Assembly: GCA_001831095.1 (NCBI GenBank)
Contig: MIDP01000005.1
Coordinates: forward strand, 30,514 to 94,513
Source of the DNA: Verrucomicrobia bacterium GWF2_51_19
GTDB lineage: Bacteria; Verrucomicrobiota; Verrucomicrobiia; Opitutales; UBA12508
Reading direction: 5' to 3'
Length of the DNA stretch: 64,000 bases
Part shown: positions 1,428 through 30,675 of the stretch, piece by piece
Layout: the number at the start of each line of letters is the position of its first letter
Position numbering within the stretch: the stretch's first letter is position 1
Position numbers and translations under genes: made by a program
The notes under the pieces: model-generated
Seen by the model: only the letters and a program-made list of their open reading frames with translations
Database searches by the model: none
What the model was told of the DNA's origin: nothing

Positions 1428-1555
1428 AAAGGCCTTTGAAAAATGATGTCAAAGCTTGGCTTTGCGCGAGCACGATCTGCCGTAGCGTACGATGGTACGT
1501 AAGGCAGTCGCGCGGAGCGAAAAACGAGCTTTCACGGCATTTTGCATAGGCCTTT
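1428..1555 (+). repeat. Type-A palindromic element, full length (128 bp)
   Basis: AAAGGCCTTTGAAAAATGATGTCAAAGCTTGGCTTTGCGCGAGCACGATCTGCCGTAGCGTACGATGGTACGTAAGGCAGTCGCGCGGAGCGAAAAACGAGCTTTCACGGCATTTTGCATAGGCCTTT. The two halves are imperfect reverse complements. The right end overlaps the rpsM stop codon. Confidence 0.9.
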
Positions 1556-1928
1556 ATTTTTTCTTCATAACACCGACGGTCTTCCTCGCGCCCTTGCGGG
1601 TACGAGCGTTGGTGCTCGTGCGTTGACCTCTAACGGGCAATCCGCGTTGATGCCGAATGCCGCGATAGCATCTAATCGCCTGCATGCGTTTGATATTACC
1701 CATCACATCGCGGCGAAGGTCACCCTCGATCTTGAATCCATTACGGGTAATCGATTCAACAATCTTGTTGAGTTCTTCTTCGCTCAACTCGTGAGCGCGC
1801 TTGTTTGGGTCTATATCGGCATCTTCCAGGAGCTCTTTGGCTCGCGTCGGACCAATACCATAGATATAGCGTAGAGAATACTCGATTTTCTTCTCTTTGG
1901 GGATATCGACTCCTAATATACGTGGCAT
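1554..1928 (-). CDS. rpsM: 30S ribosomal protein S13
   Basis: [34 protein letters not shown]... is a canonical S13 start. 124 aa. Confidence 0.95.
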
Positions 1929-1959
1929 ATCTTTAATGAATAAGTTGTGAATTAAAAAA

Positions 1960-2727
1960 CTATATTTTATACAATGTCAACACTTCCGGATCTTTTTCTG
2001 TAACGAGCACGGTGTGTTCGAAGTGAGCGCAGGGCATGCGGTCTTTTGTGACCACCGTCCAGCCGTCTTGTAAAATCTCTACAGCGTAATGGCCGAGCAT
2101 GACCATGGGCTCGAGGGCGAGCGTCATACCGGGCTTCATTTCAGGACCTTTTCCGGAAGGGCCGTAATTGGGAATTTGTGGCTCCTCGTGCATATCGCGA
2201 CCGACGCCGTGGCCAACGAAATCGCGGACAACGTTCATTCCGTTGCTCTCTACGTAGCGTTGGACGGCATTGGAAATGTCGCCGATGCGGTTACCGGGGC
2301 GCACTTGATCGATGGCAACCTCGAGCGCCTTTTGGGTGACATCGACGAGTTTTTTTACGTCATTGGAGACCTCACCAACACAGACCGTCGCGGCATTGTC
2401 TCCGACAAAACCCTTGTAGCGAAGGGCGACGTCGATGCTGACAATGTCACCTGTCTGAATCGAGCGTTGCATCGATGCGATACCGTGGACGAGCTCTTCA
2501 TTGAGCGAAATGCAGGAGTAACAGGGAAAAACGTTCTTGCCGGCGCGGTAATTGTAACTCGTACTCTCGGCCCCGTATTCCGCCATCAAACGTTTACCGA
2601 TCTGGTCGAGGTCGTAAGTCGTCATGCCAACTTTAATCGACGCGAGCATGCGATGCAAGACAGCCGCCGCAATCGTGCAGGCCTCCCGCATACATTCCAA
2701 ATCTTTACCTTTCTTTATCGGTATCAT
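1960..2727 (-). CDS. map: Methionine aminopeptidase type I
   Basis: 255 aa with peptidase M24 metal-ligand context ([25 protein letters not shown]). Sits between secY and rpsM. Confidence 0.9.
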
Positions 2728-2731
2728 TTAA

Positions 2732-2804
2732 AAGACCATTGCAAAATGTCCCACGGCGTTCTCGTCGTTCGGGCCTGGCTATAGGCCCATTTTGCAGCGG
2801 TCTT
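2732..2804 (+). repeat. Type-B element, short deletion form (73 bp)
   Basis: AAGACCATTGCAAAATG...GGCGTTCTCGTCGTTCGGGC|CTGGCTATAGGCCCATTTTGCAGCGGTCTT. The junction falls at the internal direct repeat TCGGGC. Lies 4 nt from the map ATG. Confidence 0.85.
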
Positions 2805-2827
2805 TCCTTTCGTATTTTTTAATTCGC

Positions 2828-2956
2828 AAAGACCTGTGAAAAATGGCGTCAAAGCTTGGCTTTGCGCGAGCACGAGCTGCCGTAGCGTACATACGGTATG
2901 TAAGGCAGTCGCGCGGAGCGAAAAACGAGCTTTCACGGCATTTTGCATAGGTCTTT
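2828..2956 (+). repeat. Type-A element, full length (129 bp)
   Basis: Near-identical to the 1428 copy. The right end GGTCTTTTAA abuts the secY stop codon. Confidence 0.9.
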
Positions 2957-4461: not shown

Positions 4462-4465
4462 GGTG

Positions 4466-4918
4466 TTATGACTCTATTTTTTCAATAACCGACACTTGAC
4501 CGCCTGCAGCCTCGATCTTGGCCTTGGCAGAAGAGGAAAACTTGTCTGCCGTGATCGTGAGGGCCCGACTCAGTTCGCCATCTCCGAGGACCTTGATGCG
4601 GACCGCCGTTGGACGGACGAGACCTGCATGCACGAGGACATCGCGATCGATTGCCTGAATGCCTTCGATGGTGCTGAGGTCACCGACATTGACGATATCG
4701 TAGCGTTTCGTAAAGGAAAAATTGCTGAAACCGCGTTTTGGTAGTTTGCGGTAGTATGGGATACCGGAACAGACGGGAGATGGCGTGTAACCCGCTCTCG
4801 CCTTACCACCCTTGTGACCGCGACCGGAAGTTTTACCGTGTCCTGTGCCTTGCCCTCTTCCCAAACACTTCGGTTCTGGACGTGCACCCTTTGATTTAGG
4901 TATTGTATGTAATTTCAT
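4466..4918 (-). CDS. rplO: 50S ribosomal protein L15
   Basis: ORF 4466..4933 trimmed to MKLHTIPKSKGARPEPK. The upstream ATG lies inside the type-B repeat terminus. GRGxGxGxGKT motif present. Confidence 0.9.
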   Translation of the reverse strand: MKLHTIPKSKGARPEPKCLGRGQGTGHGKTSGRGHKGGKARAGYTPSPVCSGIPYYRKLPKRGFSNFSFTKRYDIVNVGDLSTIEGIQAIDRDVLVHAGLVRPTAVRIKVLGDGELSRALTITADKFSSSAKAKIEAAGGQVSVIEKIES

Positions 4919-4925
4919 GATGCCT

Positions 4926-5039
4926 AAGACCATTGCAAAATGTCCGCTGCGTTCTCGTCGTTCGGGCTAGGTCACGTACGTCAGTACGCTCCCGTTGCCC
5001 TCGCTCCTCGAGCCTTGCCGGCCATTTTTCAACGGTCTT
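4926..5039 (+). repeat. Type-B element, full length (114 bp)
   Basis: AAGACCATTGCAAAATGTCCGCTGCGTTCTCGTCGTTCGGGCTAGGTCACGTACGTCAGTACGCTCCCGTTGCCCTCGCTCCTCGAGCCTTGCCGGCCATTTTTCAACGGTCTT. Confidence 0.9.
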
Positions 5040-5100
5040 ACCTTTCTTTTAAAATCTTAATTATTAGTACTTCAAGATCTATAATCCATGTGCCCTAGCA

Positions 5101-5135: not shown

Positions 5136-5141
5136 CATTTC

Positions 5142-5693: not shown

Positions 5694-5700
5694 ATTGATG

Positions 5701-5822
5701 AAAAACTGTGCAAAATGGCCTCTAGCTGTGTTCTCGTCGTTCGGGCTAGGTCACGTACGTCAGTACGCTCCCGTTGCCCTCACTCCTCGGGCCTTGCGAT
5801 AGGACCATTTTGCCCAGTTCTT
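5701..5822 (+). repeat. Type-B element, full length with degenerate termini
   Basis: AAAAACTGTGCAAAATGGCCTCTAGCTGTGTTCTCGTCGTTCGGGCTAGGTCACGTACGTCAGTACGCTCCCGTTGCCCTCACTCCTCGGGCCTTGCGATAGGACCATTTTGCCCAGTTCTT. Lies 7 nt from the rpsE ATG. Confidence 0.85.
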
Positions 5823-5865
5823 AGTTGTTGATTGTTACAAATTGAATAAAATAATAAAAATCCAT

Positions 5866-5925
5866 CAAGCAAGCTTGAGAAATCGTGTCAAAACTTGGCT
5901 TTGCGCGATTTCACAGGCTTGCTTA
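5866..5925 (+). repeat. Type-A short, degenerate (variant termini AAGCAAGC)
   Basis: CAAGCAAGCTTGAGAAATCGTGTCAAAACTTGGCTTTGCGCGATTTCACAGGCTTGCTTAA. Keeps the A left arm fused to the right arm. The right end overlaps the rplR stop. Confidence 0.6.
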
Positions 5926-6288: not shown

Positions 6289-6378
6289 ATCAGAAAGAAT
6301 TTTGTTAATTTAAAAATAATCAACAAGAAATAATTTTTAGAAAACTACTTTTACTAAAAAACATTACTCATTGATGAT

Positions 6379-6507
6379 AAAGAACGATGATAAATGCTGT
6401 CAAAGCTTGGCTTTGCGCGAGCACGATTCGGCCGTAGCGTACGATGGTACGTAAGGCAGTCGCGCGGAGCGAAAAACGAGCTTTCACTGCATTTTGCATA
6501 GGTCTTT
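6379..6507 (+). repeat. Type-A element, full length (129 bp)
   Basis: TAAAGAACGATGATAAATGCTGTCAAAGCTTGGCTTTGCGCGAGCACGATTCGGCCGTAGCGTACGATGGTACG...GCATTTTGCATAGGTCTTTA. The terminal TTA is the rplF stop codon. Confidence 0.9.
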
Positions 6508-7042
6508 AAGCGGTTTTCTTGCCTTCCTTACGCCTTACGTATTGCCCGACGATGCGGACGCCCTTGCCTTTGTAAGGTTCGACGGGGTAGAAATGTTTGA
6601 TGTCTGCAGCGACCTGGCCCACGAGGTGTTTGTCGACGCCCTCGATTTTGAGCTTGGTGTTTTCAACGATCGTGACCTTGATGCCCTCTGGAATCTCGTA
6701 TTTGATCGGGTGGGAATAGCCCAACGCGAGGTCGATCATCTTGCCGTTGAGAATGGCTTTGAAACCAACACCAACGATTTCGAGATCTTTGGAATAAAGG
6801 ACCTGCACGCCCTTGACCATGTTGGCCAAGATAGCGCGCGCGGTTCCTCGCATCGCATGAGCCAAGCGGCTGTTGTTCGCCGAATCGACGAGCAATTCGC
6901 CCTCTTTCAAAGTAATCGTGACGGCCTTGTCAAAGGTCTTTGATACTTTGCCCTTGGGTCCTTCGATCAGGACGGTCTGGCCGCTGATGTTAGCCTTGAC
7001 TGCTGACGGAATTTGTACGGGAAGCTTTCCTATTCTACTCAT
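6506..7042 (-). CDS. rplF: 50S ribosomal protein L6
   Basis: 178 aa. MSRIGKLPVQIPSAVKANISGQTV... is a canonical L6 start. Confidence 0.95.
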   Translation of the reverse strand: MSRIGKLPVQIPSAVKANISGQTVLIEGPKGKVSKTFDKAVTITLKEGELLVDSANNSRLAHAMRGTARAILANMVKGVQVLYSKDLEIVGVGFKAILNGKMIDLALGYSHPIKYEIPEGIKVTIVENTKLKIEGVDKHLVGQVAADIKHFYPVEPYKGKGVRIVGQYVRRKEGKKTA

Positions 7043-7054
7043 TTTTTTATCCTT

Positions 7055-7441: not shown

Positions 7442-7450
7442 AATTTTCCT

Positions 7451-7527
7451 AAGACTGTTGCAAAAGGGCCTCTAGTTGCAGTTCCCCTACTCGGGTCTTG
7501 CTGTAAGAGCCATTTTTCAACGGTCTT
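7451..7527 (+). repeat. Type-B element, short form (77 bp)
   Basis: AAGACTGTTGCAAAAGGGCCTCTAG...CTACTCGGGTCTTGCTGTAAGAGCCATTTTTCAACGGTCTT. Lies 9 nt from the rpsH ATG. Confidence 0.8.
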
Positions 7528-7552
7528 TTCATTTCGTAAGTTGTTAATTCAC

Positions 7553-7744
7553 AAAGACCTGTGAAAAATGCTGTCAAAATTTGGCTTTGCGCGAGCACGA
7601 TCTGCCGTAGCGGCAGGGCTGGCCCTGCACCCTTGGGATACTGCGTATCCACTTTTAAAAGTGGATGCGTGAGCATCCTAGGGGGTACGGGGGCCGCTGC
7701 CCCCGGCGAAAAACGAGCTTTAACGGCATTTTGCATAGGTCTTT
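7553..7744 (+). repeat. Type-A-long element (192 bp): A element with a 94-bp multi-hairpin module replacing the right half of its central stem
   Basis: The termini and outer arms are identical to type A. The interior differs (see 7613..7706). Confidence 0.9.
7613..7706 (+). repeat. 94-bp nested multi-hairpin module inside A-long
   Basis: GCAGGGCTGGCCCTGCACCCTTGGGATACTGCGTATCCACTTTTAAAAGTGGATGCGTGAGCATCCTAGGGGGTACGGGGGCCGCTGCCCCCGG. It contains consecutive short stems: CAGGGC/GCCCTG, GGATAC/GTATCC, CCACTTTT/AAAAGTGG, GGATGC/GCATCC and GGGGGC/GCCCCC. Confidence 0.85.
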
Positions 7745-7751
7745 CCTTTTT

Positions 7752-8057: not shown

Positions 8058-8063
8058 GATATT

Positions 8064-8179
8064 TAGACTGTGGCAAAACGGCCAACGGCGTTCTCCTTAC
8101 TCGGGCTAGGTCACATACCTGAATACGCTTCCCGTCACCCTCGCTCGCCTGGCATTTCCGTTCCTTTCGCTACGGTCTT
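8064..8179 (+). repeat. Type-B element, full length, degenerate
   Basis: TAGACTGTGGCAAAACGGCCAACGGCGTTCTCCTTACTCGGGCTAGGTCACATACCTGAATACGCTTCCCGTCACCCTCGCTCGCCTGGC...CTACGGTCTT. The central stem is eroded. Lies 6 nt from the rpsN ATG. Confidence 0.75.
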
Positions 8180-8203
8180 TCCTTTCAAAAATTGTTAATT
8201 CAC

Positions 8204-8332
8204 AAAGACCTGTGAAAAATGGCGTCAAAGCTTGGCTTTGCGCGAGCACGATCTGCCGTAGCGTACATGCGGTACGTAAGGCAGTCGCGCGGAGCGAAAA
8301 ACGAACTTTCACGGCATTTTGCATAGGTCTTT
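8204..8332 (+). repeat. Type-A element, full length (129 bp)
   Basis: AAAGACCTGTGAAAAATGGCGTCAAAGCTTGGCTTTGCGCGAGCACGATCTGCCGTAGCGTACATGCGGTACGTAAGGCAGTCGCGCGGAGCGAAAAACGAACTTTCACGGCATTTTGCATAGGTCTTT. Abuts the rplE stop. Confidence 0.9.
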
Positions 8333-8875
8333 TTAGTTTTTGCGGAAGGGCATTCCCATGAGTTCCAACAGCGCAAAGCCATCTTCGTTGGTCTTTGCCG
8401 TTGTGACAATCGTGATGTCCATTCCAATGTTTTTGCGGTTTCCATCGACCTGAATTTCTGGAAAAATGCTGTGATCCGAAATGCCGATGCTGTAATTGCC
8501 GTGGCCATCCAGCTTGGAAGACACGCCGCGAAAGTCGCGAATGGCTGGCAATGCGACCGCGAGGAGCCTCAACAGGAAGTTGTACATAGCATTGCCGCGC
8601 AACGTCACTTTGACGCCGTTTGGCATACCTTGTCTCAACTTAAAGTTGGAAATGCTCTTGCTGGCCTTGGTAATAATCGGCTTTTGACCCGTAATGGCCG
8701 TAAGTTCTTTTTCGATTTCGGCAATGCGATTTTTCTCATCGGACGCCGCGATACCGGTGTTGAGGACGATCTTTTCAATCGCCGGGACTTCGTGGATATT
8801 GCTGTAGCCACGCGTCTTTCTCAATTCTGGCACGACGACCTCTAAATAATGTTTTTTGAGCTCAGGCAATTTCAT
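8333..8875 (-). CDS. rplE: 50S ribosomal protein L5
   Basis: 180 aa. L5 N- and C-domain motifs (VPAIEKIVLNTG..., GNYSIGISDHSIFPEI). Confidence 0.95.
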   Translation of the reverse strand: MKLPELKKHYLEVVVPELRKTRGYSNIHEVPAIEKIVLNTGIAASDEKNRIAEIEKELTAITGQKPIITKASKSISNFKLRQGMPNGVKVTLRGNAMYNFLLRLLAVALPAIRDFRGVSSKLDGHGNYSIGISDHSIFPEIQVDGNRKNIGMDITIVTTAKTNEDGFALLELMGMPFRKN

Positions 8876-9491: not shown

Positions 9492-9497
9492 GTTCTC

Positions 9498-9620
9498 AAA
9501 CCGTTTTAAAATGTCCTCTAGCGGCGTTCTCGTCGTTCGGGCTAGGTCAACGTACCGTCAGTACGCTCCTGTCGCCCTCGCTCCTCGGGCCTGGCTATAG
9601 AACCATTTTTCAACGGTCTT
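9498..9620 (+). repeat. Type-B element, full length (123 bp)
   Basis: AAACCGTTTTAAAATGTCCTCTAGCGGCGTTCTCGTCGTTCGGGCTAGGTCAACGTACCGTCAGTACGCTCCTGTCGCCCTCGCTCCTCGGGCCTGGCTATAGAACCATTTTTCAACGGTCTT. Lies 6 nt from the rplN ATG. Confidence 0.9.
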
Positions 9621-9653
9621 ACCTTTCTTGTTAAATATGAATCATTGATACAT

Positions 9654-9700
9654 AAAGACCTTGGCAAAACGAGCTTTCAGGTCATTTTGCATAGGTCGTT
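9654..9700 (+). repeat. Type-A micro form (47 bp)
   Basis: AAAGACCTTGGCAAAACGAGCTTTCAGGTCATTTTGCATAGGTCGTT. Termini plus right arm only. Lies 2 nt from the rpsQ stop. Confidence 0.7.
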
Positions 9701-12738: not shown

Positions 12739-12861
12739 CCTGAATCAAAATAGCGCCAAAATGTGTTTTTCGCTCCGCCGCCTGGCTCACGTACTTCTAT
12801 GTACGCTACGCCAGGTCGTGCTCGCGCAAAGCCCCATTTTTGCATCTATTTTGTCTTCAGG
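12739..12861 (-). repeat. Type-C element (123 bp)
   Basis: CCTGAATCAAAATAGCGCCAAAATGTGTTTTTCGCTCCGCCGCCTGGCTCACGTACTTCTATGTACGCTACGCCAGGTCGTGCTCGCGCAAAGCCCCATTTTTGCATCTATTTTGTCTTCAGG. The core is A-like, but the stem is CTGGC/GCCAG instead of CTGCC/GGCAG. Confidence 0.85.
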
Positions 12862-12896
12862 ATAGCGTTCTATTTTTCACTTTTCGGCTGTTTTTA

Positions 12897-12949
12897 AAAC
12901 CATTGTAAAATGACTGCGACATTCTCGCTGTTCATTTTTTAACGATCTT
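12897..12949 (+). repeat. Type-B mini derivative (53 bp)
   Basis: AAACCATTGTAAAATGACTGCGACATTCTCGCTGTTCATTTTTTAACGATCTT. Termini plus a stub of the left arm. Confidence 0.6.
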
Positions 12950-12973
12950 TTTTTGTGTAAGTTATTAGTTTAT

Positions 12974-13097
12974 AAAGAACTATGGAAAATGCGCCTATAG
13001 CCAGGCCCGAGGAGTAAGGGCGACAGGAGCGTACGTTGGTACGTGACTTAGCCCGAACGACGAGAACGCCGCTAGAGGACATTTTACATAGTTCTTT
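12974..13097 (-). repeat. Type-B element, full length, inverted orientation
   Basis: AAAGAACTATGGAAAATGCGCCTATAGCCAGGCCCGAGGAGTAAGGGCGACAGGAGCGTACGTTGGTACGTGACTTAGCCCGAACGACGAGAACGCCGCTAGAGGACATTTTACATAGTTCTTT. The terminal TTA is the rplW stop. Confidence 0.9.
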
Positions 13098-14688: not shown

Positions 14689-14712
14689 AATCTAAGCGGC
14701 AGATGCCGAACG

Positions 14713-14844: not shown

Positions 14845-14919
14845 AAAGACCTATCAAAAATGTCGTCAAAGCTTGGCTTTGCGCGAAACGAGCTTTCACG
14901 GTATTTTTCATAGGTCTTT
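14845..14919 (+). repeat. Type-A short form (75 bp, central hairpin deleted)
   Basis: AAAGACCTATCAAAAATGTCGTCAAAGCTTGGCTTTGCGCGA|AACGAGCTTTCACGGTATTTTTCATAGGTCTTTT. Abuts the rpsJ stop. Confidence 0.85.
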
Positions 14920-18263: not shown

Positions 18264-18378
18264 TGTGATGTTTTTCTAGAAAATGATCTTAAAGTGGCTG
18301 AAAGGTAGGGCATCTCTTCTATTTTGCAAGAAAAAAATGCACTGTATTGCGAAATAGGGAAATACGCAGTATTTTTTA

Positions 18379-18400
18379 AAGACCATTTTGCAGCGGCCTT
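18379..18400 (+). repeat. Type-B micro form (the two termini fused, 22 bp)
   Basis: AAGACCATTTTGCAGCGGCCTT is the left AAGACC joined directly to the right terminus ATTTTGCAGCGGTCTT. Confidence 0.55.
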
Positions 18401-18424
18401 TATTTTTTTATGGTATTTATTCGT

Positions 18425-18552
18425 AAAGACCTATGATAAATGTCGTAAAAGTTTGGCTTTGCGCGAGCACGATCTGCCGTAGCGTACGATGGTACGTGAG
18501 GCAGTCGCGCGGAGCGAAAAACAAGCTTTCACGGCATTTTGCATAGGTCTTT
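18425..18552 (+). repeat. Type-A element, full length (128 bp)
   Basis: TAAAGACCTATGATAAATGTCGTAAAAGTTTGGCTTTGCGCGAGCACGATCTGCCGTAGCGTACGATGGTACGTGAGGCAGTCGCGCGGAGCGAAAAACAAGCTTTCACGGCATTTTGCATAGGTCTTTA. Confidence 0.9.
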
Positions 18553-18583
18553 AAAGTTTTTCCCGCAACTGGACACCCATTAA

Positions 18584-22733: not shown

Positions 22734-22803
22734 AGAGACCATTGATAAATGCCCGCCAACTTCTCCTCTTATTTGTCTTGGCTGCTCATCCATCAACAGT
22801 CTC
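22734..22803 (+). repeat. Type-B short form, degenerate (70 bp)
   Basis: The termini AGAGACCATTGATAAATG and CATCCATCAACAGTCTC match as inverted repeats at 13 of 17 positions. Lies 13 nt from the rpoC ATG. Confidence 0.55.
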
Positions 22804-22836
22804 ACTATTTAATAAATGTGTAAATTATTGACGTAT

Positions 22837-22964
22837 AAAGACCAATGAAAAATGCCGTCAAAGCTTGGCTTTGCGCGAGCACGATCTGCCGTAGCGTACG
22901 ATGGTACGTAAGGCAGTCGCGCGGAGCGAAAAACGAGCTTTCACTGCATTTTGCATAGGTCTTT
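22837..22964 (+). repeat. Type-A element, full length (128 bp)
   Basis: TAAAGACCAATGAAAAATGCCGTCAAAGCTTGGCTTTGCGCGAGCACGATCTGCCGTAGCGTACGATGGTACGTAAGGCAGTCGCGCGGAGCGAAAAACGAGCTTTCACTGCATTTTGCATAGGTCTTTA. The terminal TTA is the rpoB stop codon. Confidence 0.9.
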
Positions 22965-25900
22965 ATTTTTGCGCGAAATTCAATGTTTCCTCTGTGCCCA
23001 AACGGACATCCAGACACAAGCTCTGCATTTCCTTCATCAGAACGTTGAAGGACTGCGGTGTGCCCGCCGACAGTGAATTGTCGCCCTTGACGAGTGATTC
23101 GTACATCTTGGTACGGCCCTGTATGTCGTCCGACTTGACCGTTAGGAGTTCTTGAAGAGTATAGGCGGCTCCATAAGCTTCGAGTGCCCACACTTCCATT
23201 TCTCCGAAACGCTGACCGCCGTACTGCGCTTTACCACCCAAGGGTTGTTGGGTGATCAAGCTGTACGGGCCGACAGCACGGGCGTGGATCTTGTTGGCTA
23301 CGAGGTGGTTAAGCTTCATCATATAGATGTAACCCACCATGACCTCTTGATCCATTGCGTTGCCAGTGCGGCCGTCGTAGAGGACAGTCTTGCCGCTCTC
23401 TGGCAGGCTCGCCTTTTTCAGGTATTGACGGATTTCGTTTTCGCTGATGCCGTCAAAAATCGGTGTAGCGACCTTGATGCCTAGCTTTTTACAGGCCCAA
23501 CCCAGGTGTGTTTCCAAAACCTGGCCAACGTTCATGCGGCTCGGAACGCCCAATGGGTTCAAAACAACGTCTACAGGCGTGCCATCCGGGAGGAAGGGCA
23601 TGTCTTGCATCGGAACGATTTTTGAGATAACACCCTTGTTTCCGTGGCGGCCCGCCATCTTGTCGCCAACTTGAATCTTGCGCTTGATCGCGATGTAGAC
23701 CTTGACGTTCTTCATCACGCCCTGTTCGTCCCCTTCTCCGGTCTGGACGATGCGCAATTGAGCCTCGTAATCCGCCTCAATCTCTTCAAAGCGCTTCATG
23801 TAGCTCTGAAGGATTTCCATAATCTTGACGCGGACAGGCGAATGCTCCATGTCGATCGCCGCCGGAACAGAAGCCATGCGACGCAACAGGGTCTTTGTGA
23901 TCTTCCGATTGGCCGGAATGATGACCTCACCCGTCTCCTTGTTGACGACGTCTAACGGAATCTTTTCACCCAACAGAATATTGGAGAGGGACTCCGTCAG
24001 TTCTTCGCGCAACTTGTCGCTGTGCGAGCGGAACTCTTCGTTGATCTTCTTGATCTGACGGCGACGATCAGCGGGCTCGACTCCTGCCGACTCTTTATCG
24101 GCGCGGCTCGAGACCTTGACGTCCATAACGATGCCGTAGCAGCCAGAAGGAACGATGAGTGACGTGTCTTTGACGTCAGCAGCCTTTTCACCGAAGATCG
24201 CTCTGAGGAGTTTCTCTTCTGGGGCCAGTTCCGTCTCGCTCTTTGGCGTGATTTTACCGACCAAGATATCGCCTGGCTTGACCTCTGCACCCAACTTGAT
24301 AACGCCGTTGCGGTCCAAGTTTTTGAGCGCCTCTTCGCCGACATTGGGGATGTCACGGGTGATTTCTTCCGCGCCCAATTTGGTGTCGCGGGCCGTCACC
24401 TCAAATTCTTCAATGTGGACCGAGGTGAAAACGTCCTCTTTAATGAGCCGTTCGCTCAGCAAAATGGCGTCTTCGAAGTTGTAACCGTTCCATGGCATAA
24501 ACGCCACGAGGACGTTGCGACCCAGCGCCAATTCCCCGTTTTCACTGCTGGCGCCGTCTGCGAGCGTGTCGCCCTTCTTGATGGCTTGCCCCTTTTGGAC
24601 GATCGGGTGCTGATTGAAGCAGGTGGCCGCATTGGAACGCATGAACTTGCGCAACTCGTACAGATAGACGCCTTTTTTGTCGTCCGTCTTTGGATTGCTA
24701 TCAAAGCGCTGCGGCATTTTGCCATCCTTCGTGATGACGATGCGATTCGCGTCGACCGAAGCAACAACGCCATCGGCATCGGCAACGATCGTGTTTTTCG
24801 AGTCGCGGGCAACGATGTACTCAAGTCCTGTACCGACAAAGGGCGCCTCTACTTTGAGAAGCGGCACGCCTTGACGTTGCATGTTCGATCCCATGAGGGC
24901 GCGGCTGGCGTCGTCGTGCTCAAGGAACGGAATCAGGCCTGCGGCGACCGATACCAACTGTTTTGGCGAAACGTCGATCAGCGTCACTTCACTCGGCTCA
25001 ACTTCGGCGACGTCCTCGCGGCCACGACGCACGGTAACGGGCCCTACGAGCTCGTTGTTCTTGCGAAGGGCTGAATTGGCCTGCGCGATGACATGACCCT
25101 CTTCTGCGTCAGCGCCCAAGTAAACAATTTCATCGGTGACCTTGCCTTCTTTAACGACACGGTACGGCGTCTCGATGAAGCCAAACTCGTTGACGCGGGC
25201 CAAGGTCGAAAGGGAGTTGATGAGACCGATGTTCGGACCTTCAGGCGTCTCAATCGGACAAATGCGTCCATAATGAGAGGGGTGAACGTCGCGGACTTCA
25301 AAGCCGGCGCGGTCACGATTCAAGCCACCCGGTCCGAGCGCGGACAGACGGCGCTTGTGCGTCACTTCTGCGAGCGGATTGATCTGGTCCATGAACTGCG
25401 ACAGCTGACTGCGGGCAAAGAAATCCCGAATCGATGTGCTCAAGGCCTTGGGGTTGACCAACTTTTGCGGCGCAATCATGTCTACGCTCTGATCGTAGAG
25501 CGTCATGCGTTCGCGGACCAAACGCTCGGTTCGAGCTAAGCCCAAACGGCATTGATTGGCCAACAATTCGCCGACCGTACGGACGCGACGGCTGCCTAAA
25601 TGGTCAATGTCGTCGATAAAGCCTTCGCCGCGGCGCAGAGAACCTAAGTAGCGGACCGCGTCAATGACGTCTTCCGCGTCCAACAAACGATGCTCGATGT
25701 CTACCGTCCGCTTCAGGCGCTGATTGAGCTTGTAACGACCGACACGGCCCAAGTCGTAGCGCTTGGGATCCGCAAAGAGACGGCGCAATAGCGATTTCGC
25801 GTTGGAAACAGTCGGTGGCTCTCCGGGACGCAAACGTTTGTAAACCTCTCGAAGCGCCTCTTCTTCGTTGCGCGTCGGGTCCTTTTTCAAACTGCGAATG

Positions 25901-26745: not shown

Positions 26746-26827
26746 AGTGTAAAAGGATTGTTTTTAGATACACAGAATACCGATCGATGGAGACCGCTTT
26801 TCAGCGACATTTTCCATCGAACGGTAC

Positions 26828-26949
26828 AAGATCAATGCAAAATGGTCTATAGCGGCGTTCTCGTCGCTCTGGCTAAGTCACGTACCAACGTACGCTCCTG
26901 TCGCCCTCGCTCCTGCGGCCTTGCTCTAGATCCATTTTGCATCGATCTT
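26828..26949 (+). repeat. Type-B element, full length (122 bp)
   Basis: AAGATCAATGCAAAATGGTCTATAGCGGCGTTCTCGTCGCTCTGGCTAAGTCACGTACCAACGTACGCTCCTGTCGCCCTCGCTCCTGCGGCCTTGCTCTAGATCCATTTTGCATCGATCTT. Confidence 0.9.
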
Positions 26950-26971
26950 GGTACGCGTTTAGAAAACTGTA

Positions 26972-26991: not shown

Positions 26992-27026
26992 GAATAAAAG
27001 CTCAATTTCTAGAGTTAAACATCCGT

Positions 27027-27148
27027 AAGACCGCAGTAAAATGACTCTATAGCAAAGCCCGAGAAGTGAGGGCGACAGGAGCCTACTGACGTAGGTGACT
27101 TAGCCCGAACGACGAGAACGCCGCTATTGATCATTTTGCAAAGGTCTT
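27027..27148 (-). repeat. Type-B element, full length, inverted orientation
   Basis: AAGACCGCAGTAAAATGACTCTATAGCAAAGCCCGAGAAGTGAGGGCGACAGGAGCCTACTGACGTAGGTGACTTAGCCCGAACGACGAGAACGCCGCTATTGATCATTTTGCAAAGGTCTT. The central stem is CCTAC/GTAGG. Confidence 0.9.
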
Positions 27149-27159
27149 ATGTGTGTTTG

Positions 27160-27540
27160 TTATTTGACTTCGACTTTGGCACCAGCAGCCTCAAGCTTCT
27201 TTTTGATGTCTTGGGCTTCGTCCTTATTGACACCTTCTTTGATTGGCTTGGGTGCGCCTTCAACGACATCTTTGGCTTCTTTCAAACCGAGGCCCGTGAT
27301 GGCACGAACTTCTTTGATGACGTTGATCTTGTTGTCACCCGCGGCAGCGAGAATGACGGTAAATTCCGTCTGTTCTTCAACGGCAGCGGCAGCAGCGGCA
27401 ACGGGTGCAGCGGCCATAGCGGCGACGGGCGCAGCGGCGCTGACACCCCATTTGGCTTCTAGATCTTTGACCAAGCCCGCGATTTCCAACACGGATTGGC
27501 TACTCAACCACTCGATAACTTGTTCTTTTGTGATACTCAT
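27160..27540 (-). CDS. rplL: 50S ribosomal protein L7/L12
   Basis: 126 aa. Alanine-rich hinge and C-terminal KVIKEVR-like domain ([29 protein letters not shown]...[12 protein letters not shown]). Confidence 0.95.
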
Positions 27541-27657
27541 TTTTGTTATTTCCTTGAATAGTTAGCGTCCTTGCGGACATTTAAGGGAATACCCCTAACG
27601 AATTCTTCAGAAAACCTCGGAAACGGGGCCTCACCCCACTCCAAGATCATCTAAATT

Positions 27658-28164
27658 TTAAACTTCTGCATGCGCGTTCAAGACATTCAAGAGTCCCTGT
27701 GGAACACCTTGAAGGACGTACAGGACCTTCTGCGCGGGCGTATTGAGAAGACCCAAGAGCTGTGCGCGCAGCACTTCGAGCGATGGCAGCTTGGACAGCG
27801 CTTCGACATCTCCAGCGGAGAGTAGACGCTTTTCCAAGATTGCACCGCGCATCTCGAGCTTCTTTTTGTCCTTTGCAAACTGCATCAGCACTTTGGCGAC
27901 ACCTGAAGGGTTCGATCCACCCACGACAACCGCATTCTGCCCTTGAAGCAGGTTGCTCATGTCGGGGAAAGAGCGTTCCTTGGCCACCACATTGAAAATG
28001 CTGTTCTTGACGACGTGGTAGGTCGCCGATTCTGCCCGAAGCGCTTTCCTCAATTCGGCGACATCGGCTACCGTCATGCCTTTAAAATCGGCCAATATGA
28101 CGTAATTCGATGCATCCAAATAGGACGCGACTTCTTGCACTAAAAATTGCTTATCTTGTCTCAT
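27658..28164 (-). CDS. rplJ: 50S ribosomal protein L10
   Basis: 168 aa, in position between rplA and rplL. L10-like N-domain (VILADFKGMTVADVAELRKALR). Confidence 0.9.
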   Translation of the reverse strand: MRQDKQFLVQEVASYLDASNYVILADFKGMTVADVAELRKALRAESATYHVVKNSIFNVVAKERSFPDMSNLLQGQNAVVVGGSNPSGVAKVLMQFAKDKKKLEMRGAILEKRLLSAGDVEALSKLPSLEVLRAQLLGLLNTPAQKVLYVLQGVPQGLLNVLNAHAEV

Positions 28165-28179
28165 AAAACATTCTTTCCT

Positions 28180-28244
28180 AAGACCATTGTTCCCAACGTT
28201 TCATATCGCTCTTCGGGCCTTGTCTTCAAGTTTTCAATAGTCTT
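28180..28244 (+). repeat. Type-B short form (65 bp), degenerate
   Basis: AAGACCATTGTTCCCAACGTTTCATATCGCTCTTCGGGCCTTGTCTTCAAGTTTTCAATAGTCTT. Confidence 0.65.
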
Positions 28245-28273
28245 TGCCTTTTTAGTAAAAATATAAGTCCCTA

Positions 28274-28465
28274 TTAGACCTGTGAAAAATGGCGTCAAAG
28301 CTTGGCTTTGCGCGAGCATGACCTGCCGCAGCGGCAGGGCTGGCCCTGCACCCTTGGATACTTCGTATCCACTTTTAAAAGTGGATGCATGAGCCCTCCT
28401 AGTGGGTACGGTGGCCGTTGCCCCCGGCGCGAAACGAGCTTTCACGGCATTTTGCATAGGTCTAA
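28274..28465 (+). repeat. Type-A-long element (192 bp), second copy
   Basis: TTAGACCTGTGAAAAATGGCGTCAAAGCTTGGCTTTGCGCGAGCATGACCTGCCGCAGCG[module]CGCGAAACGAGCTTTCACGGCATTTTGCATAGGTCTAA. The CTA in the right terminus is the rplA TAG stop. Confidence 0.9.
28334..28427 (+). repeat. 94-bp multi-hairpin module, second copy (diverged)
   Basis: GCAGGGCTGGCCCTGCACCCTTGGATACTTCGTATCCACTTTTAAAAGTGGATGCATGAGCCCTCCTAGTGGGTACGGTGGCCGTTGCCCCCGG. It has the same length and stem order as 7613..7706, and the GGATAC/GTATCC loop changes from TGC to TTC. Confidence 0.85.
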
Positions 28466-29157
28466 TAGTGGCCGAACTCCTTGCTGTCTAGTGGGATACC
28501 TGGTGACATGGTCGCCGTCAAGGTCATACTGCAAATATATTTGCCCTTGAGGGACTCCGGACGCGCCTTGCCCATGATGTCGATCGCCTGTTTGGCGTTT
28601 TCCATCAAGGCTTCTGGCGTGAACGAACGCTTGCCGATAATGACCGACACGTTGCCCGTCTTGTCCATCTTGAACTCGACGCGGCCAGCCTTTACAGCAT
28701 GAACACCTGCGGCGATGTCATCGGTAACCGTTCCAGACTTCGGATTTGGCATCAAGCCACGCGGACCTAGGACTCGGGCGACGTTGCGGACCTCTTTCAT
28801 GGCCGTTGTCGTCGACAGAGCGACGTCAAAATCCATCCAGCCCTCTTGGACTTTTTGGATCATGTCGGCGAGGCCAGCAAAGTCGGCACCCGCTTTGATC
28901 GCCGCCTCGGGATCTTCCGTGAACACGAGGACTCGAATTTTCTTACCACTTCCATGTGGCAAGCTGACGGTACCGCGCACCATGTGCGTGCTCTGCTTGG
29001 GATCGACTCCCAAATGGGCCGAAATCTCGACCGTTTCATCAAATTTTGCTTTGGGAAACTCATTCAAGAGTGCAACGGCCTCAGTCAATGAATAGGCCTT
29101 GTCGCTCTCGACGTGCTTGATGGCTTCCCTATAACGTTTACTTGGTTTTTGTGCCAT
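28462..29157 (-). CDS. rplA: 50S ribosomal protein L1
   Basis: 231 aa. KRYREAIKHVESDKAYSL...FDETVEISAHLGVDPKQ...VRGTVSLPHG. Confidence 0.95.
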   Translation of the reverse strand: MAQKPSKRYREAIKHVESDKAYSLTEAVALLNEFPKAKFDETVEISAHLGVDPKQSTHMVRGTVSLPHGSGKKIRVLVFTEDPEAAIKAGADFAGLADMIQKVQEGWMDFDVALSTTTAMKEVRNVARVLGPRGLMPNPKSGTVTDDIAAGVHAVKAGRVEFKMDKTGNVSVIIGKRSFTPEALMENAKQAIDIMGKARPESLKGKYICSMTLTATMSPGIPLDSKEFGHY

Positions 29158-29169
29158 AGTTTGACTCCT

Positions 29170-29595
29170 TTAATCGACCACCTCTATGCCCATACTACGA
29201 GCGGTTCCTTCAACCATGCGAGCTGCCTGATTTTCGTCCTCAGCGTTGAGGTCTTTTATCTTCAGCTTGACGATTTCCTTGATCTGCTTGCGCGTTACCT
29301 TGCCGACTTTATCGCGGTTTGGAACGCCCGAGCCCTTGGGAATGCCGGCTGCCTTTTTCAAGAGGATTGCGGCCGGTGGTGATTTCAGAATGAAACTGAA
29401 GGAACGGTCTGCAAAAACGTCGATGACGACCGGCAGGATGAGTCCAGCCTGGTCCTTCGTACGCGCATTGAATTCCTTACAGAAACCCATGATGTTGACT
29501 CCATGCGCACCGAGTGCCGGGCCCACGGGGGGCGCCGGATTCGCTGCACCTGCAGGCAACTGTAAACGAATCTGTCCTATTTTCTTTTTTGCCAT
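29170..29595 (-). CDS. rplK: 50S ribosomal protein L11
   Basis: 141 aa. [36 protein letters not shown]. Confidence 0.95.
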
Positions 29596-29609
29596 GATTT
29601 TTTTGACGG

Positions 29610-30188
29610 TTAGCTGTTCACGCGTTCTATTTGCCAGAACTCCAGCTCGACTGGCGTAAAACGTCCAAACATCGAAACCGAGACCTTGAGTTTTCCTTTA
29701 TCGAGGTCGATGCTTTCGATGTTGCCAGTCAAGTTGAGGAAGGGTCCGTCGATAATTTTAACGACTTCACCAACCTCATACTGAACCTTGGGAACCTCTT
29801 TACCTTCGGATCCTTTGACCTGGTTCAATATGCGATCCATTTCCTCCGGTTTTAAGGGAGCCGGGGAATCGCCGCCCACAAATCCTATAATGCCCTGGGT
29901 GTTGCGAATAAACGCCCAGACTTCTTGTAAAAGTTTACTTTCGTCGTCGTACAAGCGCGTCTCTATAAAGAGGTAGCCCGGGTAAAACTTGCGGATCTTG
30001 GCGCTCTTGCGGCCATTTTTGACCTCGGTAACCGTCTCTGACGGCATGAGGACGCCGCGAACGAAGTCTCCCATCTTTTCTATCCCTATAAATTTCTCCA
30101 AATACCGCTTCGCCTTACCCTCTTGATTGGATAAGGTTTGCACGGCATACCACCGAAATTCACTGATACCTTTGTTTGCTGACATCAA
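29610..30188 (-). CDS. nusG: Transcription termination/antitermination factor NusG
   Basis: 192 aa. [19 protein letters not shown] (NGN domain) and C-terminal KOW ([22 protein letters not shown]). Confidence 0.9.
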
Positions 30189-30207
30189 AGTATTTCTCCT
30201 CTAAAAA

Positions 30208-30426
30208 TTAACCCGCCAAAGAGTGACGCACCCAAGAACAAACCAAATCGACGACCTGAAACAGAGAAAAGTCGACGATACTGATAAACGCTCCCAGGAT
30301 GATAATACCGATAATCACGACGATCGTCGAATCTTTGAGCTCTGCCTGTGTCGGCCAGGATGCTTTTTTCAATTCCCCGAGGGTTTCTCCCCAGAATATG
30401 CGTATCGATTTAAATGGATTCTTCAT
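30208..30426 (-). CDS. secE: Preprotein translocase SecE
   Basis: 72 aa from ATG 30426 (the ORF track starts 2 codons earlier at a TTG inside the repeat). GELKKASWPT...single TM. Position upstream of nusG. Confidence 0.85.
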   Translation of the reverse strand: MKNPFKSIRIFWGETLGELKKASWPTQAELKDSTIVVIIGIIILGAFISIVDFSLFQVVDLVCSWVRHSLAG

Positions 30427-30430
30427 GAGC

Positions 30431-30675
30431 AAACCTCTTCAAAAGGACCTCTAGCAGCGTTCTCCCTGCAGGCAAATTTGGCAATAAGTTCGTTATCCTT
30501 CGTGATTCGCCTATGTCACGCATTTCAATGCGCTCCAGTCGGCTCACACTCGGAAGCCTGCTTCTTGCCCCATTTGCCTGCAGGTTCGTCGTTCGGGCTA
30601 GGTCACGTACGTCAGAGTACGCTCCCGTCGCCCTCGCTCCTCGGGACCTTGCTATAGGCCATTTTGAAGAGGTTT
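30431..30675 (+). repeat. Type-B element interrupted by a nested 120-bp element
   Basis: AAACCTCTTCAAAAGGACCTCTAGCAGCGTTCTCC[insert]TTCGTCGTTCGGGCTAGGTCACGTACGTCAGAGTACGCTCCCGTCGCCCTCGCTCCTCGGGACCTTGCTATAGGCCATTTTGAAGAGGTTT. Confidence 0.85.
30465..30584 (+). mobile_element. Nested type-D MITE-like insert (120 bp), single copy in window
   Basis: Perfect 13-bp inverted termini CCTGCAGGCAAAT...ATTTGCCTGCAGG, extendable to ~24 bp imperfect. It splits the left arm of a type-B element. Confidence 0.75.

Follow-up and report, generated by a model that had tools for sequence, protein, structure and literature searches.

Hairpin-forming repeats placed at stop and start codons in the translation/transcription gene block of Verrucomicrobia bacterium GWF2_51_19: a previously undescribed family

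The window, a 64-kb stretch of DNA analyzed here at its full length, belongs to Verrucomicrobia bacterium GWF2_51_19, an uncultured bacterium from groundwater. The minus strand contains a block of genes, namely tRNA-Thr, tuf, tRNA-Trp, secE, nusG, rplKAJL, rpoBC, rpsLG, fusA and the S10/spc/alpha genes to rpsD, with the rpoA start at the window edge. Palindromic elements are found in this block from position 1428–1555 (the first element) to 30429–30677 (the last one). From tRNA-Thr/tuf to rpsD, 15 of the 38 junctions carry elements, and these 15 are 208–414 nt long. The original prediction had described palindromes densely packed in the block, at 15 of 39 junctions, and its coordinates hold. 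It had counted 29 copies in the block and more than 40 in the window, or about 6% of the sequence, which is close to the ~25 copies or fragments (~2.8 kb) and ~37 elements or fragments (~4.07 kb, 6.4%) found here. The other junctions, taken to be tight, are indeed −4 to 31 nt long, including the 4-nt overlaps expected at rplN/rplX and rplX/rplE, except for two long junctions without elements, rplJ-rplL (117 nt) and tuf-tRNA-Trp (119 nt). The high density in the S10-spc-alpha-rpoBC region was also observed; however, it is not special to this super-operon, as elements occupy ~6 of the 19 junctions outside the block.

All modules have common 17–18-nt termini, (T/A)AAGACC-nnnGn-AAAATG at one end and CATTTT-nCnnn-GGTCTT(T/A) at the other. 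Families A (~127 nt) and B (~122 nt) differ in their interiors, and C is an insert nested in the apex of A. The length of the elements ranges from 45 to 250 nt, with a usual hairpin unit of ~125 nt. The terminal motif AAGACC-N5-AAAATG (AAGACCNNNNNAAAATG, at most one mismatch) has 48 matches in the 64-kb window against 0.46 expected from 100 dinucleotide shuffles (sd 0.73, largest 3), which excludes chance.

The elements of the block lie on the minus strand unless stated otherwise. At the rpsM-rpsK junction, the end of an A copy (1427–1556; nhmmer E=2.7e-45) overlaps the TAA stop codon of rpsM; a decayed 3' remnant of B is present downstream. The secY-map junction contains a composite in which A at the secY stop codon (2827–2957) is followed by the conserved linker gcgaattaaaaaatacgaaagg (2805–2828), whose Shine-Dalgarno (SD)-like GAAAGG abuts the hairpin base of a short B (2731–2805) ending 3 nt before the map ATG. 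B copies were also found just upstream of the rplO start (4925–5041), with GAAAGG immediately 5', and 6 nt before the rpsE ATG (5700–5823), and an A-derived fragment hairpin is located 7 nt past the rplR stop (5862–5915). The stop codons of rplF and rplE are associated with A copies (6378–6508 and 8203–8333, respectively). An A with the C insert in its apex (7553–7744, 190 nt) is positioned 7 nt past the rpsN stop, and a short B (7450–7528), with the SD AGGAAA 3' of its hairpin, ends 8 nt before the rpsH ATG. GAAAGG directly precedes both a diverged B ending 5 nt before the rpsN ATG (8063–8180) and a B ending 4–5 nt before the rplN ATG (9497–9622). A very short A, reduced to its terminal arms, lies 2 nt past the rpsQ stop (9654–9700).

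At the rplW-rplB junction, a B copy in the opposite orientation (12974–13097, plus strand) abuts the rplW stop codon, a short terminal-arm hairpin is located at 12895–12950 (no strand assigned), and an A-family copy without canonical outer termini (12745–12852, plus strand; nhmmer E=3.5e-23) is found 19 nt before the rplB ATG. The orientation of this last copy is opposite to that of the stop-abutting A copies. The rpsJ stop codon is associated with an A that has a central deletion (14845–14919, 75 nt), with a B remnant further downstream. At the rpoC-rpsL junction, A lies 31 nt past the rpoC stop (18424–18553) and is followed by a terminal-arm fragment (18365–18401). The rpoB stop codon carries A (22836–22965), and a B-type 3' arm remnant (22734–22752) is located just upstream of the rpoC SD and ATG. 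The rplL-rpoB junction contains B (26827–26950) and a B in the opposite orientation, 10 nt past the rplL stop (27025–27150, plus strand). At rplA, the TAG stop codon is supplied by the terminal variant TAGACC of an A with C insert (28274–28465), and the partner arm is changed to GGTCTA, which is compensatory. The last element, a 248-nt composite B-type with a foreign insert (30429–30677), ends ~3 nt before the secE ATG.

Outside the block, A is located at the ftsK stop codon (34936–35063, plus strand), with a partial B after it (35085–35213, plus strand), and another A at the glgA stop codon (35251–35383, minus strand) follows the orientation of glgA. These two A copies, 190 nt apart, have opposite orientations, in each case that of the adjacent gene; thus, orientation tracks the gene and not replication. 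A B-core with different outer arms directly follows the glmS stop (40037–40181, minus strand), and a solo C module is found at 40290–40400 (plus strand). B copies end 8–9 nt before the glgC ATG (42678–42801, plus strand; a terminal fragment is nearby at 42601–42617) and lie upstream of the Kdo-transferase gene (52475–52596, plus strand). A short A-derived hairpin is present at 52378–52450 (no strand assigned), and one B copy is inserted in frame within the murD reading frame (47689–47814, plus strand).

The position and orientation of the elements relative to stop and start codons are fixed. Of the full A copies (n=34), 25 have the end of a long ORF at their sense 5' side and 2 have one at the opposite side; in 16 cases, against none at the opposite side (p=3e-5), the first base of the stop codon is no more than 3 nt from the A core. 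The stops at A are TAA (19) and TGA (6), with TAG at rplA. Of the full B copies (n=27), 14 are followed by the start of a long ORF 2–10 nt after their sense 3' end, leaving out a 15th case that is a spurious ORF antisense to rplL; at the other end, no ATG ORF starts in this way. A second terminal motif follows A in 20 of the 34 copies, with a modal linker of 25 nt, and the linkers of many unrelated loci resemble one another in sequence. The usual inserted unit, of ~275 nt, consists of A, a ~25-nt linker often ending in GAAAGG, and B, and is located exactly between a stop codon and the next ATG. The 29 copies counted originally are better seen as ~15 composite A-linker-B insertions, variously decayed; after insertion, many copies lost sequence by internal deletion. 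The location of A at stop codons and of B before starts, as well as the composite unit with its frequent GAAAGG, had not been described in the original prediction.

Every element forms a long hairpin, as had been predicted, with an MFE of −30 to −62 kcal/mol (−88 for the 190-nt A+C form) and z-scores of −3.9 to −8.7. In both A and B the inverted complementarity spans the whole element and not the ends alone. Covariation analysis of 34 A copies revealed that 97.3% of cells are paired and that 17 of 39 pairs show changes on both sides, a value reached in 0 of 500 shuffles (slid controls gave 3–6). For 22 B copies, 96.3% of cells are paired and both-side changes occur in 12 of 31 pairs (again 0 of 500 shuffles as high). 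Thus, the hairpin structure is kept by compensatory change. In the A arms, changes from one Watson-Crick pair to another were found in 65 cells and G-U intermediates in 16. For A, the antisense strand has the more stable fold in all 34 copies, and for B, the sense strand in all 22; this asymmetry gives no RNA-level signal.

ORFs within the elements did not match any protein family, and the elements are non-coding. A search with Rfam covariance models at the gathering score returned only two tRNAs, with nothing relevant at E<=1 over positions 1–33000. No match to A, B or C was found among PLSDB plasmids or viral contigs, and the literature search revealed no description of repeats from Verrucomicrobia GWF2_51_19. 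The original prediction did not recognize the sequences either, and this hairpin repeat family is previously undescribed.

The family extends beyond the window. Copies of the A core were found on 25 further stretches of the same MAG, from more than 20 other contigs, none of which overlaps the window; four proteins sampled from three of these stretches match the MAG exactly or belong to its clusters of at least 90% identity. The nhmmer search gave 153 A and 90 B matches in the window plus loci of the same MAG. The A copies of the operon block are 91.5% alike, versus 81% to all others, and form a local subfamily. The closest available relatives (L031–L034) share this gene order exactly, their junctions measure 1–64 nt and the protein lengths are the same as here, and A, B and C gave no match in them; as their SecY proteins are only 72–74% identical, such "empty sites" hold only at about the family or order level. 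Four assemblies (two from ENA, two from Logan) reproduce 20 kb of the region at 99.99–100% identity and are all identical with respect to the elements, with no presence/absence polymorphism among them. The wide occurrence on contigs of the MAG together with the absence from relatives indicates insertions across the genome and not leaders or artefacts. The repeats thus match no named family, are not confined to this locus and are not shared by the relatives, which supports the insertion reading proposed originally.

All these characteristics allow us to assume that the repeats are probably non-coding mobile elements that form hairpins and belong to a superfamily restricted to this lineage, of MITE/REP type, selfish and tolerated inside operons. 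The family would have spread through the intergenic junctions of the whole GWF2_51_19 genome, including the 15 junctions of the translation/transcription block. The nesting of C in A, the operon subfamily of A and the in-frame B in murD count as support for mobility. Like bacterial MITEs in general, which measure ~50–300 bp, the elements are small, dispersed in many copies and non-coding, have terminal inverted repeats and face empty sites in (distant) relatives. A cognate autonomous IS was not found within the ~290 kb of genome searched, which contained neither a long element with these termini at its ends nor a convincing TIR pair at IS distance. One candidate for an autonomous element, on stretch L026, was rejected as it encloses a sigma-54 regulator. 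The window contains no recognizable transposase gene. The flanks do not show a consistent target-site duplication (TA, TTAA, AGGA, GTACC or none) and thus point to no particular transposition mechanism; the bases flanking the element core extend the palindrome.

The Correia/NEMIS elements of Neisseria are MITEs of 100–155 bp with terminal inverted repeats, present in hundreds of copies near genes. They are co-transcribed as hairpins, and full-length and internally deleted forms coexist. Their sequences are unrelated to A, B and C, and they have a duplicated TA target and defined promoter and IHF features, whereas here the duplication is inconsistent and promoter-like matches in the elements are not clearly enriched. 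ERIC/IRU elements of Enterobacteria are imperfect palindromes of ~127 nt without coding capacity, dispersed in transcribed intergenic regions including operons, and their RNA folds into long hairpins (background of PMC3733652), as in the elements described here. However, there is no sequence similarity, the phylum is different and the copy density of ERIC is far lower. To our knowledge, ERIC sequences do not systematically abut stop or start codons, nor do they form two-hairpin composites with an SD-bearing linker. The Rickettsia palindromic elements (RPE, ~100–150 nt) can sit in frame within protein genes (background of PMC3733652). The B copy in murD is similar in this respect; however, in-frame insertion is exceptional here (1 of ~37 in the window) and precise intergenic placement is the rule.

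A function as intrinsic (Rho-independent) terminators was ruled out. The elements end with GGTCTTT followed by mixed sequence and have no U-tract, and a scan of the window gave 22 terminator-like matches versus 25.8 expected, none of which corresponded to a whole element. From this absence of terminator features it is reasonable to infer that the elements are transcribed inside the operon mRNAs. They may be tolerated there since each would fold on itself, adding little unstructured untranslated RNA and keeping stop and start codons physically close.

Of 24 hairpins adjacent to a start codon, 8 have an SD-like 4-mer no more than 11 nt 5' of their base, compared with 8 of 128 other hairpins (p=7e-4); the cases behind this enrichment are in part not independent, as several have the same linker by descent. 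An SD between the hairpin and the ATG was found in 1 of the 24. The layout GAAAGG-hairpin-ATG occurs at map, rpsN, rplN, rplO and 4–5 other genes. No SD is present on either side in about half of the B copies adjacent to starts, and most genes with tight junctions are preceded by an ordinary SD 6–9 nt from the ATG. With B placed between GAAAGG and ATG, the folded hairpin would give a working distance, so that a hairpin-bridged SD, i.e., a putative split ribosome-binding site, is possible at B elements. Split ribosome-binding sites were demonstrated experimentally for the T4 genes 38 and 25, where a hairpin shortens an SD-AUG spacing that would not function otherwise, from 22 to 5 and from 27 to 11 nt (PMC3014915). 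The layout GAAAGG-[B hairpin]-3–6 nt-ATG would follow the same logic; however, the T4 hairpins are ~15–20 nt long and unique, and here the hairpin is a mobile repeat of 75–125 nt.

More tentatively, the A-linker-B composite could be a mobile element organized so as to remain invisible to translation, which carries its own linker SD and preserves coupling. Such an element would land between stop and start, with its first bases at the stop codon, so that the terminating ribosome would open its basal stem, and either the B hairpin or nested folding of the four interchangeable arms would set the SD and the upstream stop beside the downstream AUG. Coupling would thereby be preserved in operons of critical stoichiometry. 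At secY-map, four mutually complementary arms do permit a nested fold joining the stop and start codons. If true, this would represent the first split-RBS cassette that is mobile, and the host may already use it to tune or process r-protein mRNAs.

An alternative that we consider unlikely is that the repeats are domesticated intercistronic RNA modules by which the host sets the relative cistron output in r-protein operons. A would then serve as a 3' stabilizer and a ribosome brake at the stop, the AU-rich linker as an endonuclease processing site, and hairpin B as a 5' stabilizer and SD-bridging structure. The strict genome-wide placement and orientation at stops and starts, retained relative to the gene even at convergent junctions, would fit such a role, as would the arm-to-arm covariation, the SD-like motif at the hairpin base and the nested stop-start fold at secY-map. 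There are precedents in hairpin repeats that stabilize or destabilize mRNA (background of PMC3733652) and in split ribosome-binding sites (PMC3014915). However, the copies are young, nearly identical (81–97%) and absent from all relatives found, many are decaying by deletion, most composites have a degenerate linker SD, and the copy inside murD points to selfish behavior and not to a required signal.

Less likely still is a REP/REPIN-type origin, in which the elements would be moved by a RAYT or another tyrosine transposase of the IS200/IS605 family acting on single-stranded DNA hairpins and would not be DDE-moved MITEs. The predominance of Watson-Crick double changes over G-U intermediates in A fits a DNA hairpin and not a protein-binding TIR, and the inconsistent target-site duplication is consistent with this mechanism. 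BIMEs are mosaics of two palindromic units and conserved linkers, and the composite found here resembles them in having two palindromic units and a conserved linker. Similarly to A and B, REPs are extragenic palindromes between operon genes whose pairing is kept by compensatory change. Stop codons can be overlapped or provided by REP termini, and GTAG REPs are abundant in Opitutus terrae, a member of the same class (PMC3733652). However, the definition of REPs includes a GTAG or CGTC head, typical of their two superfamilies, and a 20–40-nt palindrome (PMC3733652), whereas the units studied here are 122–127 nt long with (T/A)AAGACC termini. In addition, no gene for a RAYT (IS200/IS605-like Y1 transposase) was seen in the 64-kb window.

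Compared with the mobile-element reading, the remaining explanations are very improbable. Conserved cis-regulatory leaders or attenuators for autogenous control of r-protein operons would occur at such positions (rplJ, rpoB, rpsJ-rplC), and one relative has the short motif TCTGCCGCTTAGA beside rplC in common; this reading is refuted by the lack of elements at the junctions of relatives and by genome-wide dispersal of the same sequences beside ftsK, glgA, glgC, murD and dozens of unrelated genes, and no Rfam leader was matched. Assembly artefact or local duplication deserves practically no weight: short-read metagenome assemblies can mis-join at repeats, and Logan contigs end at hairpin apices, but the same 20 kb recurs in four independent assemblies, the copies differ by 3–30% with unique flanks, and elements are present on more than 20 contigs. 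Integron attC-like sites marking gene cassettes are imperfect palindromes of similar size directly after stops, with fixed orientation, conserved ends and variable covarying middles; this reading has next to no chance, being contradicted by conserved synteny, i.e., by a universal r-protein gene order identical in element-free relatives, and the termini differ from RYYYAAC/GTTRRRY, there are two hairpins per junction and no integrase was found in the window.

The annotated start of rplO (4933) falls within the B copy at 4925–5041, and the real start is probably at 4918.

The source organism, a groundwater MAG within Opitutae, carries a single minus-strand block of translation and transcription genes in the first 32.3 kb of the window. 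The order of the block is tRNA-Thr, tuf, tRNA-Trp, secE, nusG, rplK, rplA, rplJ, rplL, rpoB, rpoC, rpsL, rpsG and fusA, followed by rpsJ–rpsQ, rplN–rplO, secY, map, rpsM, rpsK, rpsD and the first rpoA codons at the window edge. The operon lacks L30, L36, IF1 and adenylate kinase, as do those of the nearest relatives. The block junctions fall into two length classes, namely 15 repeat-bearing junctions of 208–414 nt and the remainder of −4 to 31 nt, save two that are long and repeat-free: rplJ–rplL (117 nt; 27,541–27,657) and tuf–tRNA-Trp (119 nt; 30,871–30,989). The latter holds a hairpin, AAAAGCCAGCTGGCTTTT, which was read as terminator-like, unlike the repeat hairpins. The original prediction had counted 15 occupied junctions among 39; the 15 stand and the total is 38, and the two 4-nt overlaps at tight junctions are present as described. 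Few parts of bacterial genomes are as compact and conserved as the ribosomal-protein and RNA-polymerase operons, and translational coupling within them fixes subunit stoichiometry. Here, 15 junctions each took up 200–400 nt of hairpin DNA, block genes were neither lost nor reordered, and the protein lengths remained the same as in relatives despite the insertions.

All of the copies implied earlier were recovered using repeat finding, motif scanning and profile searches. The counts come close to the earlier ones, with about 25 copies or fragments (2.8 kb) in the block against 29, about 37 (4.07 kb) in the window against more than 40, and a share of the window of 6.4% against about 6%. The terminal motif AAGACCNNNNNAAAATG occurred 48 times in the window at no more than one mismatch, against 0.46 matches expected. 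Four independent assemblies were concordant, with 99.99–100% identity over up to 20 kb, and this agreement excludes misassembly.

Every module has (T/A)AAGACC-nnnGn-AAAATG at one end and the complement at the other. The interiors of families A (about 127 nt) and B (about 122 nt) differ from each other and are well conserved within each family. A small apical hairpin, GTAC-N4-GTAC, is common to both, and the A profile picks up B weakly, so the two families are distantly related. Family C, a block of about 88 nt, takes the place of the A apex in two copies (7553–7744 and 28,274–28,465), and a solo C was found at 40,290–40,400. Short forms of 45–77 nt retain the arms alone. In the B interior (e.g., 9530–9590), which is scarcely paired yet highly conserved, an imperfect direct repeat, GCCCGAGGAGCGAGGGCG / GCCCGAACGACGAGAACG, lies on either side of the apical GTAC hairpin; it could be a protein-binding site or a remnant of an IS end.

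When folded as RNA, each module forms one long hairpin, with energies between −30 and −62 kcal/mol (z-scores −3.9 to −8.7); the A+C form reached −88 kcal/mol. In the A arms (34 copies), 97.3% of cells were paired and two-sided changes were found in 17 of 39 pairs; none of 500 shuffles was as high and register-shifted controls gave 3–6. The B arms (22 copies) were similar, with 96.3% of cells paired, two-sided changes in 12 of 31 pairs and, again, 0 of 500 shuffles as high. Changes in the A arms ran from one Watson–Crick pair to another in 65 cells, far more than the 16 cells with G–U intermediates; pairing that matters on DNA, or on the two strands alike, accounts for this pattern no less well than a constraint on RNA alone. 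The strand asymmetry of RNA folding, considered as a sign of RNA-level selection, was uninformative, as the bias is set by family ancestry and is opposite in A and B.

The placement of the modules relative to codons was found to be ordered. Read along transcription, A begins where the upstream gene ends, at its stop codon, the junction being taA/AAGACC after secY, rpsJ and rplE and tAA/AGACC after rpoB, rplF and rpsM. The TAG stop of rplA is provided by a terminal variant, TAGACC, and the partner arm is altered to GGTCTA. Among 34 full A copies genome-wide, an ORF of at least 70 codons ends at the stop-side end in 25 (TAA in 19, TGA in 6), and at the opposite end in just two, both weak; a stop codon begins within 3 nt of the A core in 16 cases versus 0 at the opposite end (p = 3e-5). 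Two A copies lying 190 nt apart behind the convergent genes ftsK and glgA are oppositely oriented, each according to its own gene, which indicates that the orientation tracks the gene and not replication. In 14 of 27 copies, family B, in one orientation, stops 2–10 nt short of the ATG of a long ORF, and none of the 27 has an ATG ORF equally near its opposite end.

Another terminal motif follows A in 20 of the 34 copies, with a modal linker of 25 nt whose sequence recurs across unrelated loci (consensus tgtgaATTAACAAcTTACgAAAGG). Most simply, the long junctions of the block would represent about 15 composite insertions in the order stop, A, linker, B, ATG. Four composites are intact (secY–map, rplE–rpsN, rpsN–rpsH and rpsQ–rplN); in the remaining ones B, and sometimes A, is worn down to remnants, including B remnants 5′ of rplJ, rpoC, rpsK and rplC and an A-derived remnant after the rpsE stop. 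The ordered stop/start placement and the linker composite are newly recognised here, and the former hints at rules for which insertions operons tolerate.

To evaluate the spread of the repeats, a metagenome scan was performed with the A core, and matches were found on 25 further stretches, none of which overlaps the window; the repeats are thus not confined to this locus. Four proteins were sampled across three of the stretches; they were exact GWF2_51_19 matches or belonged to its clusters of at least 90% identity. Overall, the profiles gave 153 matches for A and 90 for B, and the non-redundant elements numbered 95. In a collection of 5.8 billion proteins, the SecY of the nearest relatives was just 72–74% identical. 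The orthologous operons of two such distant relatives (L031/L032 and L033/L034, the latter from Verrucomicrobia GWC2_42_7) match the block exactly in gene order and have equal protein lengths and junctions of 1–64 nt, and no matches to A, B or C were found in them. These tight, repeat-free junctions mean that the elements are insertions into an ancestrally tight operon. The observation of palindromic repeats throughout the block is confirmed, and the interpretation given to it in the original prediction holds. The junctions compared by eye showed little or no similarity to those of the distant relative, apart from the last ~20 nt 5′ of rplC (14,689–14,712), which share TCTGCCGCTTAGA with L031 (1238–1262). 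This sequence could be a conserved native signal, acting in L3 translation or in control of the S10 operon, which has outlasted the insertion upstream of it.

The repeats are not special to the translation/transcription operon: in the half of the window outside the block, they occupy about 6 of 19 junctions versus 15 of 38 in the block, as counted manually because crude automatic gene calling was too noisy. The higher number of repeats per kb in the block reflects the many small genes there. The six full A copies of the block (1427–22,965) share 91.5% mutual identity versus 81% to all other A copies, the nearest neighbour of each is another block copy, and their TTCGCTCCGCGCGACT / CCATCG apex is distinct. 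These features point to local spread (hopping) or homogenisation by gene conversion over 22 kb. No such local pattern was found among the B copies.

A full B element (47,689–47,814) was found in frame within murD (47,062–48,354, plus strand), where it encodes about 41 residues (roughly aa 210–251) that fall after the central domain and before the C-terminal one. The ORF remains open through B and matches the MurD model end to end, and seven Opitutae MurD homologues are about 24 residues shorter over this stretch. Most likely, the repeats represent a non-autonomous, hairpin-forming mobile repeat, as suggested by the near-identical dispersed copies, the nesting of C in A, the internal-deletion derivatives, the local burst of A in the block, the in-frame murD copy and the absence from relatives. 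Pfam annotation of all large ORFs at 32–64 kb revealed no transposase in the window, and no long element with the same termini was found in about 290 kb of the genome. Three weak candidate pairs were obtained from unpaired termini spaced as in an IS; the one examined, L026, encloses an ordinary sigma-54 regulator and was rejected as an autonomous element. The flanking duplications are inconsistent, and no target-site duplication of constant length was found. The covariation of variable arm positions argues against a simple protein-bound TIR and speaks for a hairpin intermediate like those of REP/RAYT or IS200/IS605 systems.

Comparison with known families indicated that ERIC/IRU, 127-nt hairpins inside operons, are the closest in behaviour. 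BIME/REPIN resemble the repeats in being palindrome mosaics with linkers and stop-codon overlap, Correia elements are also alike in behaviour, and Rickettsia RPEs are comparable through the murD copy, a palindromic element in a coding gene. No sequence match to any of these families was found. REPs are defined by a GTAG or CGTC head, which is missing from the termini studied here (PMC3733652). A search of Rfam (gathering score and E ≤ 1) matched no named family, in line with the original prediction. A blastn search of PLSDB plasmids with the secY–map composite gave no match, viral contigs had no hits to either the terminal-pair pattern or the B core, and nothing specific was found in the literature on GWF2_51_19 repeats or MITEs in Verrucomicrobia. 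The exact terminal-pair pattern matched once in 185,579 species-representative genomes, a scan that requires 24 exact bases and does not include the source MAG, so that it bounds the spread loosely and says little on close relatives. The match lies in the Candidatus Muproteobacteria groundwater MAG nzgw542 (JAHFQD010000185.1; L005, 2627–2763), where a 130-nt hairpin in a divergent intergenic region has the same 18-nt termini, AAAGACCGTAACAAAATG, and an unrelated GC-rich palindrome inside. This hairpin may belong to the same terminal superfamily, as a distant member from a different phylum; alternatively, the likeness may be coincidental (our own estimate is 0.13 matches expected). The repeats are a new sequence superfamily of an already known kind, unusual in their density within the most conserved operons, in the two-hairpin composite with an SD-bearing linker and in their codon-precise, orientation-specific placement.

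The elements are probably transcribed through, given the lack of U-tracts, the lack of enrichment in the terminator scan and promoter-like matches that are not clearly enriched (23 vs. 14.7 ± 4.1 expected). A role as terminators was rejected on the first two grounds. A sigma-70-like 11/12 match, TTGACA-18-TATCAT (6403–6374, minus strand), spans the A 3′ arm and flank and points toward rplR; the TTGACR part is conserved among A copies and a good −10 is not. An outward promoter in A is possible at this copy only, and a promoter role for the A 3′ arm in general was rejected for lack of overall enrichment. An insertion that folds on itself would leave little unstructured untranslated RNA, the usual substrate of Rho polarity, and would hold its own ends together. 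This self-folding may explain how an essential operon tolerates the elements. All four arms of the composite are interchangeable, and RNAfold accordingly gave either two side-by-side hairpins or, at secY–map, a nested fold. In this predicted nested fold, the A 5′ arm and the B 3′ arm would pair, bringing the stop and start within a few nucleotides of each other. A terminating ribosome would have to open a hairpin that begins at the stop codon, and Liang and Deutscher reportedly found that E. coli REPs lying no more than ~15 nt from a stop codon cause ribosome stalling and reduced expression. By this analogy, the elements may be costly or may have a regulatory influence.

Genes at tight junctions in the block mostly have an ordinary SD (AGGAG, AAGGA) 6–9 nt from the ATG. 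Only 1 of 24 B-preceded genes has an SD in the 3–6 nt between hairpin and ATG. An SD-like 4-mer lies within 11 nt 5′ of the hairpin base at 8 of 24 start-adjacent hairpins versus 8 of 128 non-start hairpin ends (p = 7e-4, a statistic weakened by the linker being shared by descent). It is usually the GAAAGG closing the linker, and the GAAAGG–hairpin–ATG layout was found at map, rpsN, rplN and rplO; roughly half of the B copies next to a start codon lack an SD both 5′ and 3′ of the hairpin. Split ribosome-binding sites have been established by experiment for T4 genes 38 and 25, where the arrangement is the same (PMC3014915). The intervening B hairpin here is five times longer. That the B hairpin forms such a split site is conceivable from this likeness but rather unlikely. 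The repeats offer a natural test set for hairpin-bridged initiation, stop-abutting hairpins and the polarity resistance of structured untranslated RNA.

The repeats also mislead annotation, through spurious ORFs and falsely extended N-termini, and break short-read assemblies at hairpin apices. A 95-aa ‘gene’ between rpsN and rpsH (7449–7736) and a 98-aa ORF between rplA and rplJ (28,161–28,457), both on the minus strand, lie wholly within elements and have no family match. For rplO, annotated at 155 aa, the start codon falls within the 3′ arm of B (an ATG; 4919–4933, minus strand), and the L15 of relatives begins one ATG further on (MKL...). Short-read Logan contigs from other runs (L003 and L004) begin or end at A-hairpin apices (18,477, 14,881 and 14,892), most likely owing to assembly-graph breaks at palindromes and not to RNA processing. 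In addition, the window encodes an EscN-like type III secretion ATPase (55,663–56,985, plus strand) and an 802-aa ankyrin-repeat protein (44,647–47,055, plus strand); together with the repeat load, these are a hint of possible interaction between this Opitutae MAG and a eukaryotic host.
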